Source of the DNA: Patescibacteria group bacterium
Lineage (GTDB): Bacteria > Patescibacteriota > Dojkabacteria > JAKAPS01
NCBI GenBank assembly: GCA_025450075.1
Contig: JANWIC010000001.1
Location: forward strand, 1-57,475
Direction of reading: 5' to 3'
DNA length: 57,475 bases
The first letter of the stretch is position 1; each line of letters opens with the position of its first letter. The notes below the pieces were generated by a model. That model was given only the letters and a program-made list of their open reading frames with translations, ran no database searches and had not been told where the DNA came from. Positions 30,051-38,641 of the stretch are shown one piece after another. A program made the position numbers and the translations under genes.

Positions 30051-30992
30051 ATGAAAACCCCTATAAAATGCAGTGTAGGAATTACAGCATATAACGAGGG
30101 AAAAAATATTTCCAGAATTTTAAACGCTTTACTGCGTCAAAAACTTCATGATGTCATTATAGATGAGATTCTTGTAATCTCATCCGGAAGTATTGACGAT
30201 ACAAACAATATCGTAAAAGAATCTGCAAAAAAAGATAAACGGATAAAACTTACTGTAGAAAGTAAACGTAAAGGTAAAGCCAGTGCTGTTAATATCTTTA
30301 TTGATAATGCTAAAAATGAAATTTTGGTTTTAGAAAGTGCTGATACAATCCCGGATAAAAATACTATTGAACGGATGGTCCGGCCTTTTAAAAATGACCA
30401 TATTGGAATAACTGGATCACATCCAATCCCAATAAATTCAAAAAAAACACTTGTCGGCTATGCTGTGCATTGTATGTGGGATTTGCATCATCAGATTTCA
30501 CTTAACCATCCAAAAATGGGTGAAATGATTGCATTTCGTAAATCATTCAAAAAAATACCGGTTCTTTCTGCAGTTGATGAAGTTAATATAGAAGCCCTCA
30601 TAAAAGGACAGGGGTACAAGTCAAAATATATAGCACATGCAATTGTAAGAAATAAAGGACCTGAAACATTAAAAGAATATATATCACAGCGAAGAAGAAT
30701 TGCTTTCGGTCATGTTGCAACAAAGATTGAACATGGTTATAAGGTATCTACATTTAGTGGGAAAAGAGCTTTGTATCTGATGATAAAAAACCTGGCAAAA
30801 GTGGCAGTTACAAAACCATTAACATTACCAAAAGAAATCCTTTTTTCTGCAGGGACTGCTTTTCTTGAAGTATATGTTAGAATCTTGGGAATTATAGATT
30901 ACCGGGTGTATAAGAAGAATTATGCTGTTTGGAAAATAGCTTCAAGTACAAAAGACCTTCGGATTAAGGTAAAGCCTGAGATACAAACTTAA
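30051..30992 (+). CDS. GT2 glycosyltransferase
   Basis: VGITAYNE, SGSIDDT, GKASAVN, SADT, QRRR. ATG 30051 preferred. Confidence 0.88.
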   Translation: MKTPIKCSVGITAYNEGKNISRILNALLRQKLHDVIIDEILVISSGSIDDTNNIVKESAKKDKRIKLTVESKRKGKASAVNIFIDNAKNEILVLESADTIPDKNTIERMVRPFKNDHIGITGSHPIPINSKKTLVGYAVHCMWDLHHQISLNHPKMGEMIAFRKSFKKIPVLSAVDEVNIEALIKGQGYKSKYIAHAIVRNKGPETLKEYISQRRRIAFGHVATKIEHGYKVSTFSGKRALYLMIKNLAKVAVTKPLTLPKEILFSAGTAFLEVYVRILGIIDYRVYKKNYAVWKIASSTKDLRIKVKPEIQT

Positions 30993-31270
30993 AAACCTAC
31001 CAATATTATCACATTATTATTGATTACCCTTGCAATGCCTCCTTCTATTGGAATTGTTTTTGTCTGTCCTTTATTAAATATCCGTAGTTCTCCTTTATAT
31101 AGTTTGGTATAAAAAGGGGTATGGAATGGAAGTATGCCAATTTCAATCCCTTCTTTTCCAGGTCCAATAATACTATCTCCAGGTCCTTCATAAATTGTTT
31201 GATCCTGGTCTACAACTAATATATCAAGACTAGATAAATTAATTTTATCTTCCTCGTTATTTTCCGCCAT
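30989..31270 (-). CDS. atpC: F1 epsilon subunit, beta-sandwich domain only
   Basis: [14 protein letters not shown]...[17 protein letters not shown]; follows atpD; no C-terminal helices. Confidence 0.85.
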
Positions 31271-32666
31271 TTTTAATCTTTTCCCATTTAAGCATAGCGT
31301 CTTCGATTTTGCCTATCATATAGAAAGGTTCATCAGACATGTCATCGTATTTTCCCGAAAGTATTTCTTTTATTCCCTTTACTGTGTCATCTTTTTCCAC
31401 ATATACTCCAGGTGTGTTAGTGAACTTTTCTGCAGTATAAAATGGTTGCGATAGAAATTTAATAATCTTTTTCGCCCGTGAAACAGTAGTTTTTTCTGTT
31501 TCAGATAATTCGTCTACACCCAAAATTGCAATAATGTTTTGCAGGGAACGATATCTCTCAAGTACTTTAAGTGATTCTAGCAATGTCTGTGAATGTTCTT
31601 CTCCTAATACTTCACTATCAACAGATGCGGATGATGCCAGAGCATCCATTGCAGGGTAGATTTTTTGCTGTGCAATTTTTCGAGAAAGAACAACGACGCT
31701 ATCCAAATGTGAAAAAATAGCCTGAATTGCGGGATCTGAAAAATCATCAGCTGGGACGTAGATTGCTTGAACAGATGTAATAGCACCTTTTTCAGTAGAT
31801 ACGATTCTTTCCTGAATATCTCCAAGCTCTGAATCCATAGTTGATTGATAGCCGGTTTCAGATGGGATTCTTCCAAGAACCGTTGATACCTCAGCTCCTG
31901 CTTGAATGAAACGGAAAATATTGTCGATGAATAAAAGGATATCTTTGTTCATAGTATCTCTAAAATATTCTGCTATAGTTACACCTGTATTTGGAGTTCG
32001 ATAACGCATAGCCGGTGACTCATTCATTTGTCCTAGTACAATTGCTACATTTGGAAGAACTCCAGTATCTTTAAGTGAGACATATAGTTCATTTCCTTCT
32101 CTCGTACGTTCTCCGACTCCTGTAAATACAGAATTTGTCTTATGACGCATTGTTGTATTATGGATGATTTCTGTTACGAGCTGTGTTTTACCTACACCAG
32201 CACCTCCTAGAAATCCGATTTTACCCCCCTTTACGAAAGGAGTAAGAAAATCGAGTGCTTTGATTCCTGTTTCAATTATTTCTGTACTATGTTTTGTTTC
32301 AACAAAACTAGGACTTTTCCTATGTATTGGCCAGGATTCTTCAGTCTTTATCTCGGGTCCACCATCCACTACATCACCAAATACATTCACGATTCTTCCA
32401 AGCAGCTCTGTTCCAACGGGAACTCGTAATCCGTCGCCTGTATCTCGTACTTCAAGACCTGCTGATAATCCTGCAGTGGTTCCCATAGCAAGGCATCTTG
32501 TCGTGTGATCTGGAAGATGTTCGAATACTTCTAAACGAACCTTATCTTTTGTCTGGACAATTATGGTGTTATGAATTTTTGGAAGTTCATCCAAAAATTT
32601 GACATCCACAACTGCACCATGTATTGATGTAATGACTCCTTTAGTTGTGACTTTTTTATTTACCAT
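31257..32666 (-). CDS. atpD: F1 beta subunit
   Basis: [56 protein letters not shown]. Confidence 0.97.
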
Positions 32667-36520: not shown

Positions 36521-36535
36521 AGTAGGACGAATAAA

Positions 36536-38641
36536 TTATTTAATGAGTACAGCGGATGCAATAGATAATATAGCAATTCCTAAACATAATACCAAGCTTA
36601 TTGAAAGCGCAACTTGAATTTTTGTTCTTGCAAACGGATTTCTTCCAATTGCTTCAAGCCCTCGAGCTGACATGAATCCAATACTTACAGATGAACCTAG
36701 AAGACCGAGCCCGGCAGCAATTCCTGCAGCAAGAACTTTAGCACTGTTTGATGAATTTTGTGTTGCATTCACGATTACCTGTTTTAAACCGCTTCCTAAA
36801 TTTTGTAATGGATTTGGAGTTTCTTTTCCATTGACATCAAATTCATTACTTGTTCCTGATAATCCAAGTCCATGGATTGTTATGATATCTTTTTGCATCG
36901 GTTTACTAATTGTTACATTTCCTGTCCAAACACCGTTTGTAAATGTATCTCCTGTGGATGGGGAGATTGTTGTTGTTCCGTCAGCTAAAGAAATTGGTCC
37001 CGCGAATGTTCCTAAAATATTATTGTTATTATCCTCCGCAGTAACTACCACTACAAATGGGACTCCCAATAGCTGTGGACTTGGAATTGTCCTGATAAGT
37101 AAATGGCCACCACCGATATTGGTATTTAATATTTTTTGATTAAGAGGAACTGCCTGGATGATTACTTGTGCTTGTGCTTGGACACTTCCTGATTGGTCTG
37201 TTGCTACAGCAGTTATCGATGCATTTCCTGGAGTTGTTCCTGCATTAATGCTTGTTGAAGAGCCATAGCTTTGTGCAAGAGTACCTGCGCCTGCCGATAG
37301 TTGCCAACTTATTTGTGTATCAGTAATTGGGGTATTTGAAGCATCATATGCTTGTGCATTTACTATGACACTTCCACCAGCTGCAACTACAGCTGGATTA
37401 GGGTTAATACTTACGTGATCGATCTTAAGGTTAGATAAGGGTTGATATGGTCCAGTTGGAGTAGGAGAAGCCGTTGAAAGTGGTTGATATGGTCCACCTG
37501 TAGTGAGAGGAGATGGAATAGGGGTAGGGGTTGGTGTTGAACCTCCACCGCTACTACTTCCGCCAGAGCTTCCGCTGCTTCCTGATCCCGGATTATTGTT
37601 ATCACTAATATTTTCGTTAATAACGGTGATGGATGCTACTGCTCCAACGCTTCCCACACTTACCTTTACTGTATTATTGTACACACCAGGAGTAGTCCCT
37701 GAAACAAAATTACCATTTGAATCAATAGTTCCTCCTCCATTTACAACACTCCAAGTTGGGGAAGAAAGACTTATCGGGTTACCGTATTGATCTGTTCCTG
37801 TTACGGAAAATGGCTGTGTTCCGCCTTTTGGAAGAATACTAGTTAAAGGTGAAATCTTAAGTGTAGATAAAGGTCCGCTGGTCGCATTTTCATAAAAATT
37901 TACTCCTGAGGAAATATTAGAACCACCCCCGATTGATCCGTTAATTGTATAGGTACCGATTTTGCTCCCCAGTGTCACGGAAGTCGAAGCTGTACCAGAA
38001 AAATTTGTCGTTACACTATAGTTGGAAAGTCTTTGTCCGCTTGCTCCGGGAGGATATCCCGGAATTGAAAAATTGACACCAATATTGGGAATCGGGTTAC
38101 CGTATTGATCAATTGCTTTTACTGTTAAACCTTGTGAAAGAGTCGTTATGACTTGTCCAGTTTGAGCTGATCCTCCGATTAATGATAGAAAATCCTGGTT
38201 ACCGGGATTAACAACAAAAGACGGAGATATTCCGTTAGTAAATGGCGAGTTATATGCAGTAATCGTATCAGGATAAGCAGTTCGGGTAATAGTAACTGTT
38301 CCATTCCATACACCATTTGAAAAATTATTAGTACGTGATGGAGACATTGTATTTGTCGCATCAGAAAGATTAATCACCCCATTAAAGGAAGTATCAACCT
38401 GAGATGAACTATTACATTTGTATAATGTAACGGAAAAAGGAGTTCCAGCATTGATTGGGTTATTTACAAACGATGTGTCAAATACGACAGTATTTGTTAA
38501 TCCTTGGCATTGTGTGCTTTGTGCATACACAATACCTGCAACAAGCAGGAAAATAGAAGCGAAAGGAGCAAGTATAGCACTGAAAATACTTAACACCATC
38601 GCCTTTCGGAAATATTTCATTTTAATAGGCAGTTGTGTCAT
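36536..38641 (-). CDS. Secreted multi-Ig-like protein fused to a C-terminal ATP synthase subunit c-like hairpin
   Basis: Signal peptide; Ig-like repeats (DQYGNPI twice, F.NGVW.G.VTI twice); GS/PT linker; last 69 aa AAGIAAGLGLLGSSVSIG...EAIGRNP...; occupies the atpE position. Confidence 0.88.
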   Translation of the reverse strand: MTQLPIKMKYFRKAMVLSIFSAILAPFASIFLLVAGIVYAQSTQCQGLTNTVVFDTSFVNNPINAGTPFSVTLYKCNSSSQVDTSFNGVINLSDATNTMSPSRTNNFSNGVWNGTVTITRTAYPDTITAYNSPFTNGISPSFVVNPGNQDFLSLIGGSAQTGQVITTLSQGLTVKAIDQYGNPIPNIGVNFSIPGYPPGASGQRLSNYSVTTNFSGTASTSVTLGSKIGTYTINGSIGGGSNISSGVNFYENATSGPLSTLKISPLTSILPKGGTQPFSVTGTDQYGNPISLSSPTWSVVNGGGTIDSNGNFVSGTTPGVYNNTVKVSVGSVGAVASITVINENISDNNNPGSGSSGSSGGSSSGGGSTPTPTPIPSPLTTGGPYQPLSTASPTPTGPYQPLSNLKIDHVSINPNPAVVAAGGSVIVNAQAYDASNTPITDTQISWQLSAGAGTLAQSYGSSTSINAGTTPGNASITAVATDQSGSVQAQAQVIIQAVPLNQKILNTNIGGGHLLIRTIPSPQLLGVPFVVVVTAEDNNNNILGTFAGPISLADGTTTISPSTGDTFTNGVWTGNVTISKPMQKDIITIHGLGLSGTSNEFDVNGKETPNPLQNLGSGLKQVIVNATQNSSNSAKVLAAGIAAGLGLLGSSVSIGFMSARGLEAIGRNPFARTKIQVALSISLVLCLGIAILSIASAVLIK
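37773..38110. repeat. 20-bp exact direct repeat encoding DQYGNPI in two Ig units
   Basis: ATCGGGTTACCGTATTGATC at 37773-37792 and 38091-38110. Confidence 0.85.

Follow-up and report, generated by a model that had tools for sequence, protein, structure and literature searches.

A second F-type ATPase operon in a soil Patescibacteria genome whose ring protein joins predicted exported Ig-like domains to a c hairpin without the ion-binding carboxylate

Introduction

Can a rotary ATPase do without ions and pass force to proteins outside the cell? This question is raised by an operon of seven genes in a 57,475-nucleotide (nt) stretch of DNA (contig JANWIC010000001.1 of assembly GCA_025450075.1, hereafter the window) from a soil bacterium of the candidate phyla radiation (CPR; Patescibacteria). 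The operon encodes the F1 and stator subunits of an F-type ATPase, and the place of the ring subunit c is taken by a fusion of 701 amino acids (aa), in which predicted exported Ig-like domains are followed by a c hairpin without the ion-binding carboxylate. The genome has a size of 1.11 Mb in 25 contigs and is 93.5% complete; the window makes up its contig C1. We consider it probable that the operon encodes a second, paralogous F-type machine, which would hydrolyse ATP without ion coupling and pass force to the exported domains.

Rotary ATPases are textbook ion-coupled machines. To our knowledge, the only described exceptions that are not ion-coupled are the F1-like X0 ATPases of mycoplasmas. 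An earlier reading of the window, made from its letters and open frames without database searches (the sequence-only reading), had proposed an F-type ATPase rebuilt as an ion-uncoupled rotary motor that carries Ig stalks outside the cell.

Results

A packed F-type operon with an altered ring gene

On the minus strand at 38641-30989, seven open frames follow each other in the order fusion-b-delta-alpha-gamma-beta-epsilon, with intergenic gaps of -14 to +15 nt. The genes were named by Pfam and NCBIfam profile searches, which bore out the sequence-only reading of seven packed genes in the order E*-F-H-A-G-D-C:

38641-36536, minus strand: fusion protein, 701 aa; Pfam Big_1 with 44.5 bits and ATP-synt_C with 26.7 bits at residues 637-700
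36520-36011, minus strand: b-like peripheral stalk subunit, 169 aa; NCBIfam subunit-b models with 19-23 bits, all below their cut-offs
36008-35481, minus strand: delta (OSCP), full length, 175 aa; PF00213 with 58.7 bits
35472-33616, minus strand: alpha, 618 aa; TIGR00962 (atpA) with 555.4 bits against a cut-off of 484.45
33619-32660, minus strand: gamma, 319 aa; PF00231 with 137.8 bits
32666-31257, minus strand: beta (catalytic), 469 aa; TIGR01039 (atpD) with 611.4 bits against a cut-off of 462.85
31270-30989, minus strand: epsilon, N-terminal beta-sandwich only, 93 aa; PF02823 with 56.1 bits at residues 18-91

The remaining subunits missed their equivalog cut-offs: gamma reached 120.8 bits (cut-off 194.45), delta 54.8 (TIGR01145, 57.5), epsilon 52.1 (67.25), b 20.2 (65.5) and the c hairpin 29.5 (71). 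The Pfam domain cut-offs were passed by gamma, delta, the N-terminal domain of epsilon and the c hairpin. The operon boundaries of the sequence-only reading were kept because the flanking genes (a TMEM260-like glycosyltransferase, a GT2 family protein and unnamed proteins) lie on the opposite strand or are unrelated.

The ring protein is a predicted exported chain on a c hairpin

The fusion protein was modelled with AlphaFold2 using an alignment of 42 sequences. The mean predicted local distance difference test score (pLDDT) was 81.6, and the Ig-like domains were mostly above 85. The N-terminus was modelled as a helix at residues 6-43, and a disordered, Pro/Thr-rich linker occupies residues 346-402 between Ig-like domains three and four. 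The two helices of the hairpin span residues 632-667 and 669-700. The protein is thus divided into the following parts:

38519..38641, minus strand: signal peptide, approximately residues 1-41, predicted by sequence inspection (charged start, long hydrophobic stretch, then VYA/QS)
36827..38518, minus strand: exported part with five beta-sandwich (Ig-like) domains at residues 50-146, 150-256 (Big_1), 259-342, 406-499 and 511-605
36749..36826, minus strand: variable tether with a low-confidence helix (611-626), residues 606-631; conservation 0.38, pLDDT 48-65
36536..36748, minus strand: c-subunit hairpin, residues 632-701, and stop codon; PF00137 with 26.7 bits against a cut-off of 24, and 32.6 bits in a six-frame search

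The Big_1 and PF00137 matches together with the five modelled domains agree with the earlier description of a 701-aa secreted Ig protein that ends in a c hairpin. Relatives were searched for with residues 560-701 as query among proteins of 385-1227 aa, which yielded 42 fusions of 613-818 aa. In the full-length alignment, the mean column identity was 38%. Most of these relatives begin with Sec-type signals with AxA-like cleavage sites, as judged by inspection of the sequences. Because of these signal peptides and the canonical c topology, the Ig-like domains are predicted to be extracellular, as the sequence-only reading had it: the signal would be removed, and both ends would lie outside with the RNP loop in the cytoplasm, as in a normal c subunit.

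The strongest conservation was found in the F1-facing cytoplasmic loop, RGLEAIGRNPxAK, which is nearly invariant (0.94). The membrane helices (0.58-0.65) and the five ectodomains (0.53-0.61) follow, and the tether comes last; its length varies among the relatives, with Gly/Ser/Ala-rich inserts. The residues that are invariant across the 42 fusions include G644, G646, G649, G661, E663, A664, G666, R667, N668, P669 and A671. With an ectodomain as conserved as the membrane helices, an unchanging partner (the envelope of the cell itself, for instance) is more in keeping than a fast-evolving receptor on a host. When the whole model was compared with the PDB using Foldseek, only generic multi-Ig chains were found (complement C3, S-layer and axonemal proteins; template modelling score ≤0.20), and a search of the ESM Atlas gave no usable match.

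The loss of the carboxylate, also claimed from the letters alone, was seen in each comparison. Aligned to the genome's own canonical c subunit, the hairpin has Leu at the Glu column. A profile of 31 hairpins searched against the PDB had its best matches among solved c subunits (9itj_H, E = 3e-10), and at their Glu column the profile consensus is hydrophobic. Asp or Glu was present in helix 2 of none of the 42 database relatives and none of the 31 locus hairpins, compared with 7/7 short canonical c open reading frames (ORFs) of the same loci. A complex prediction of gamma, epsilon and four c hairpins scored 0.00 against a mark of 0.32 and is neutral on binding.

Catalytic and stator parts are kept, the epsilon C-terminal domain is not

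The motifs of beta (Walker A, GERxxE with the catalytic Glu, Walker B and YVPADD) are intact in 19/19 orthologues, as are the P-loop and Arg finger of alpha in 22/22. The DELSEED loop of beta is partly neutralised, with two acidic residues gone in most of the 19 orthologues. Gamma has a mean column identity of 51% over 20 orthologues. The b-like protein has a single N-terminal transmembrane helix followed by a charged coiled coil; its 26 orthologues agree in the C-terminal, delta-facing segment, whereas the membrane helix lacks conservation.

The helical C-terminal domain of epsilon inhibits hydrolysis in well-studied bacterial enzymes. Here, all 20 aligned epsilon orthologues stop at the beta-sandwich or at most 11 residues beyond it. 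The 23 epsilon ORFs from fusion operons are 77-118 aa long; of the 30 ORFs whose best match is canonical epsilon, 26 have 134-164 aa. Judging from these lengths, the inhibitory domain is missing in all 23 orthologues. Intact F1 motifs and a truncated epsilon had both been noted in the sequence-only reading, and on these grounds the F1 part looks active and unregulated.

Alpha also carries a C-terminal tail (33616-33936) of 107 aa, which is of low complexity and rich in Pro, Thr and Glu. Tails of 2-171 aa with similar composition were found in the orthologues, along with an N-terminal extension bearing a loosely conserved SFPxxLDFxFP motif.

The same genome encodes a canonical ATP synthase

A complete canonical atpB-E-F-H-A-G-D-C operon is located on contig C16 of the window genome:

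contig C16: canonical operon with a (244 aa), c (68 aa, with Glu), b (164 aa), delta (131 aa), alpha (512 aa), gamma (314 aa), beta (457 aa) and epsilon (143 aa)

The one real match to subunit a (PF00119) in the genome belongs to this operon; there was none in the fusion operon or in the window. The claim that atpB is absent therefore stands for the operon and its surroundings and falls for the genome. PF00137 matched twice in the genome, in the 68-aa c next to subunit a and in the C-terminus of the 701-aa fusion, and PF00006 revealed two alpha/beta pairs, one per locus. A third PF00006 match was rejected as a further rotary ATPase, as it is Rho. Each ring protein thus has its own F1 set, so that the canonical atpB and atpE do not have to share the one encoded in the window. 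The two sets are old paralogues, with 53% identity between the betas and 41% between the alphas.

The canonical delta (L012:8266-8661, contig C16 of genome G000) is short, at 131 aa compared with the full-length 175 aa in the fusion operon. Short deltas have been noted in CPR synthases in the part of a preprint consulted here (10.64898/2026.10.01.756066).

Fusion operons recur across Patescibacteria

In a scan of one genome per species, we obtained 80 loci, 32 of which match beyond the hairpin. All 32 come from Patescibacteria groups or bins labelled as such (CPR2, CPR3, Berkelbacteria, Microgenomates and others). F1 genes of the fusion-operon type stand beside the fusion in 25/32 loci, with the full run through epsilon in 20, and four loci end before alpha could appear. 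A subunit-a match was found in none of the 32. This conserved architecture and synteny speak for derivation from an F-type ATPase and against an assembly chimera, and the recurrence that the sequence-only reading had put forward as a check was thus observed. A rearranged order was seen in L019 and L021, where the block gamma-beta-epsilon is found on the same strand as fusion-b-delta-alpha and about 2 kb upstream of it.

We also examined a phylum sample of 401 genomes, in which fusions of an ectodomain to the hairpin were found in 11. Eight genomes have fusions of about 630-770 aa (G000, G067, G093, G116, G144, G319, G351 and G398), and giant fusions of 1685-2592 aa occur in four (G045, G049, G116 and G416). 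The giant fusion of G049 combines NHL propellers and Big_1 domains with the same kind of C-terminal hairpin. Its operon (L093:2400-18850) starts with this gene and continues with an exported FN3/purple-acid-phosphatase-N protein and a MacB-like ATP-binding cassette (ABC) ATPase and permease, followed by b, delta, alpha, gamma, beta and an epsilon of 86 aa. Further giant fusions were seen in L094, L097 and L033. Over all searches, the giant type spans 1386-2592 aa.

A small-ectodomain type and its beta subunits belong to the same clade

The hairpin profile was searched against 1.84 billion representative sequences and gave 1251 matches at E ≤0.001. Among the best 150 of these, another family was seen, with proteins of about 257-290 aa (about 257-300 aa in loci L099-L128; for example L109:9008-14977). 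In these proteins, a domain of about 190 aa stands between a signal peptide and a hairpin that lacks the carboxylate. In 18 of the 20 loci examined, b-like, delta-like, alpha, gamma, beta and short epsilon genes come after this gene. The alpha and beta of this type fall below the equivalog cut-offs (atpA, 386.6 against 484.45; atpD, 446.1 against 462.85). Near-full-length members are encoded in 49 of the 401 genomes and in none of the 11 with Ig or giant fusions, the window genome included.

Subunit a (PF00119) is present in 28 of these 49 genomes, and no match was found in 21. Five of the latter were checked. Four (G386, G279, G233 and G308) have no other PF00137 match and a single alpha/beta pair in addition to Rho; three of the four are single contigs and 95-99% complete. 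The fifth, G061 (C1:438084-443280), also encodes an A/V-type ATPase with a double-hairpin c, again without subunit a.

The small-type ectodomain module was also observed inside giant proteins of 1000-6895 aa. G004 and G002, which belong to the window's order (L095:6594-11924 and L124), have no Ig fusion; each carries an F1-like operon that is highly divergent and encodes a b-like protein of 286 aa, and small-ectodomain hairpin genes flank this operon in divergent or convergent orientation. Tandem multi-hairpin c proteins that appeared in the hairpin-profile search were set aside, as they carry carboxylates and are ordinary, unrelated duplicated c subunits. P0043, P0069, P0071, P0074 and P0076 have three to five tandem c hairpins each, some with Glu and some with Gln.

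In alpha-rooted beta trees, the Ig, giant and small types fell into one clade, with 100 in the Shimodaira-Hasegawa-like approximate likelihood ratio test (SH-aLRT) for 36 rows. A careful search with 24 rows, from which 18 canonical and near-duplicate rows were left out, gave an ultrafast bootstrap of 92 and SH-aLRT of 100 for this clade, and 96/100 for the Ig type alone. The betas of fusion operons accordingly group apart from those of canonical CPR synthases, as the sequence-only reading would have it. A first tree had placed them outside all canonical betas, and this early branching did not hold with denser sampling: the clade sits among canonical F-type betas, in a weakly supported position. 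Because of this placement, the clade most likely goes back to an ordinary synthase that was duplicated and then diverged.

Comparison with known rotary ATPases

The operon shares with canonical F1Fo operons (atpBEFHAGDC) the gene order from E to C and alpha and beta genes that score above the equivalog cut-offs of atpA and atpD. It also has gamma, delta, b and the N-terminal domain of epsilon, and the topology of the c hairpin and its RNP loop match. It differs in having no subunit a, a ring protein that lacks the carboxylate and bears about 590 exported residues, an epsilon without C-terminal domain, a partly neutralised DELSEED loop and betas in a separate clade.

An F-type ring protein that has a hairpin without carboxylate is also found in Acetobacterium woodii (c1, PDB 4BEM), whose chain 4bem_J was matched in the hairpin-profile search. 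There, the hairpin is presumably one of two in a duplicated subunit, within a Na+-coupled ring that works with subunit a. In our operons, by contrast, every copy lacks the ion site and carries an ectodomain.

N-ATPases, like the fusion operon, form a second F-type operon beside the main one. The cut-offs of their alt_F1F0 models were missed (beta and alpha, 515.3 against 752 and 490.7 against 750.5; gamma, 34.6 against 282.35). The parts of the sources consulted describe N-ATPases as retaining subunit a together with a c that binds ions, in another gene order (PMC2881411; preprint 10.64898/2026.10.01.756066).

The closest parallel in function is provided by the mycoplasma type 2 (gliding, G1) and type 3 (MIB-MIP) F1-like X0 ATPases; what is said of them here refers to the consulted parts of PMC12994834 and PMC3369863. 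Both types are seven-gene clusters beside a genuine F1Fo operon, and both include a signal-peptide protein with a large domain and two C-terminal transmembrane helices (PMC12994834, PMC3369863). The surface MIB-MIP system depends on the type 3 ATPase, the F1-like part of which is labile and partly cytoplasmic (PMC12994834). The fusion operon resembles them as an extra seven-gene cluster next to a true F1Fo operon in a small-genome, host-dependent bacterium, with alpha-, beta-, gamma- and epsilon-like subunits and a proposed transfer of ATP energy to surface proteins. The outline of the 701-aa fusion matches that of the mycoplasma protein, a comparison of outline alone and not of sequence homology.

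The mycoplasma family models were nevertheless missed (MSC_0619, 260.5 against 520; MSC_0618, 437 against 570; MMOB1660, 364.6 against 600; MMOB1670, 444.9 against 850), and the gene order here is the canonical atp order. The b and delta subunits are kept here, whereas the text consulted describes none in mycoplasma clusters, and the 12-helix membrane protein and the small cytoplasmic protein 2 of those clusters have no place in this operon (PMC12994834). The hairpin here is recognisable as c; no such similarity is reported for the mycoplasma protein in those parts of the two papers (PMC12994834, PMC3369863).

If the group is defined by an exported domain fused to a carboxylate-less c hairpin, by b-delta-alpha-gamma-beta and a short epsilon, and by a beta within the clade, the window operon has all of these traits. 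In the literature, from which the supplementary figures of preprint 10.64898/2026.10.01.756066 were not covered, we came upon no account of an exported domain fused to a c subunit, nor of such operons in Patescibacteria. That preprint examined 'unusual genomic neighborhoods' of CPR beta homologues, and the part consulted does not describe this arrangement. The sequence-only reading's impression of an architecture without precedent hence holds for the fusion of c to an exported domain and has to be qualified for the outline, which the mycoplasma type 2 and 3 protein shares (PMC12994834, PMC3369863).

Surroundings of the operon

Upstream of the fusion gene lies one promoter-like site:

38677..38706, minus strand: TTGACT, 18 nt, TATCTT with TG; 9/12 matches, a consensus match only

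Such sites are rarer in the region than in its shuffles (23 compared with a mean of 30.7). The 3' end of the operon is bordered, at 27601-30992, by two glycosyltransferase genes, one on the minus strand for a TMEM260-like protein O-mannosyltransferase of 797 aa and the GT2 gene on the plus strand. A TMEM260-like gene occurs within 10 kb of the fusion operon in only seven other loci, and the adjoining glycosyltransferases were rejected as unproven parts of the system. The Pro/Thr-rich linker of the fusion could, speculatively, be a glycosylation target. DNA of the source type was found in three soil-metagenome sequencing runs, in small shares (0.05-0.15); no RNA run was listed, and this result is neutral on expression.

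Discussion

What kind of machine would such an operon encode? A force-generating machine that is not coupled to ions appears to be the simplest reading, because the features for rotary catalysis and for the rotor foot are kept under selection, while those for ion coupling and for restraint by epsilon are gone. The uncoupling in particular is suggested because relatives of the same clade live in genomes without any ion-coupling part. In this machine, alpha3-beta3 with gamma and the short epsilon would hydrolyse ATP in the cytoplasm, and b and delta would hold the head. The foot of the rotor would rest on an oligomer of c hairpins that lack the carboxylate and face no subunit a, and each exported chain, with its five Ig-like domains, would be anchored at its C-terminus by one of these hairpins. 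Energy from the hydrolysis of ATP would cross the membrane as torque, twist or strain to the protein outside. Within this reading, we favour the view that the fusion operon works like the mycoplasma F1-like X0 ATPases without being a member of them.

The formation of a ring, the contact of the loop with gamma and epsilon, operation by hydrolysis only, rotation and the role of the ectodomain are parts of this model that we infer from sequence comparison. The N-terminal helix forms the inner ring in solved F-type rings, so the tethers would be expected to leave near the ring axis. Since they are flexible and variable, winding or pulling would be favoured over rigid spinning stalks. As a guess, the ectodomains may act on the cell envelope or on the surface of a partner cell. 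More tentatively, and with chances well short of even, the c ring may serve as a transmembrane drive shaft whose rotation winds, pulls or sweeps the exported chains, an ATP-powered winch or rotor on the surface of an episymbiont.

Several points weigh against the force-generating machine. The PF00137 support of the hairpin is barely above the cut-off (26.7 against 24 bits). The tether, being flexible, poorly conserved and of variable length, argues against rigid rotating stalks and makes a rigid transmission of torque doubtful. The membrane helix of b is not conserved, and nothing points to a part that would fix the stator against the envelope. Three of the 32 fusion loci (L033, L038 and L041) have at least 8 kb downstream without F1 genes. 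A canonical atpB is likewise present in each of the 11 genomes that carry an Ig or giant fusion, compared with 208/401 overall (a count that includes the unpublished genome G189). The Ig type might hence depend on the canonical a or c, and mixed rings with these might be formed. Such rings are conceivable by analogy with A. woodii c1 (4bem_J), which shows that a ring tolerates a hairpin without carboxylate.

The last two points lead to the alternative that survives best, a second isoform of an ion-coupled synthase or ATPase that borrows subunit a and perhaps c. The Ig-c protein would then be a minor member of a mixed ring that displays or anchors a stalk. The loop sequence, which is identical to that of many canonical CPR c subunits, would suit such a ring, as do the presence of atpB in all 11 genomes and the A. 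woodii match, if the ring functions there as we take it to. However, a dedicated b-delta-alpha-gamma-beta-epsilon set is conserved as one operon with the fusion and never includes a or a short c, the beta subunits make up a clade of their own, epsilon has no regulatory domain, and operons of the sister type occur in genomes that have neither a nor another c. We therefore regard a borrowed subunit a as rather unlikely.

The ectodomains could instead sense contact or load and gate the ATPase or recruit F1, without sustained rotation, with the hairpins as a docking platform. The flexible tether would suit such an outside-in or regulatory device, and the ectodomain, as conserved as the membrane helices, suits a fixed partner over a fast-evolving adhesin. 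The labile, partly cytoplasmic F1-like part of the mycoplasma type 3 system, as described in the part of the source consulted, points the same way (PMC12994834). Yet a complete set of rotor and stator subunits is under selection, and Pfam detected no signalling domain in the operon, which leaves this device with a small share of our confidence.

We consider it very unlikely that the F1-like ATPase and its ion-free ring move or insert a protein, lipid or polymer as type III export ATPases, to which it is related, do. The homology of F1 to FliI is reflected in the NCBIfam matches, and the operon of the giant variant includes a MacB-like ABC pair and an exported FN3 protein; but the seven genes include no export gate or channel, and alpha and beta score above the cut-offs as atpA and atpD, not as FliI. 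A decaying duplicate or an assembly artefact, which the sub-threshold NCBIfam scores of the auxiliary subunits might suggest, is contradicted by conservation (seven open frames, 42 relatives of the same architecture, synteny in 25/32 loci and intact motifs) and can practically be dismissed.

For the force-generating machine, the transmembrane link is legible in the sequence itself: a c hairpin without carboxylate forms a single polypeptide with the exported part, and the operon has a complete rotor and stator. This makes it a testable question whether F1 can do mechanical work outside the cell, and how. If the c ring does act as a drive shaft, there would be a whole clade of such machines, with other heads (the domain of about 190 aa and the NHL/Ig giants), in 60 of the 401 sampled Patescibacteria. 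A drive shaft of this kind would moreover hint that 'protein 5' of the gliding and antibody-cleaving ATPases of mycoplasmas is a degenerate c subunit that works in the same way.

The small type also bears on how these genomes are interpreted. Subunit a is missing from 21 of the 49 genomes that encode it, and in four of the five checked the alpha and beta genes of this operon are the only ones. Here, alpha and beta genes do not indicate chemiosmotic ATP synthesis, and the reading of ATP synthase genes in CPR genomes must change accordingly.

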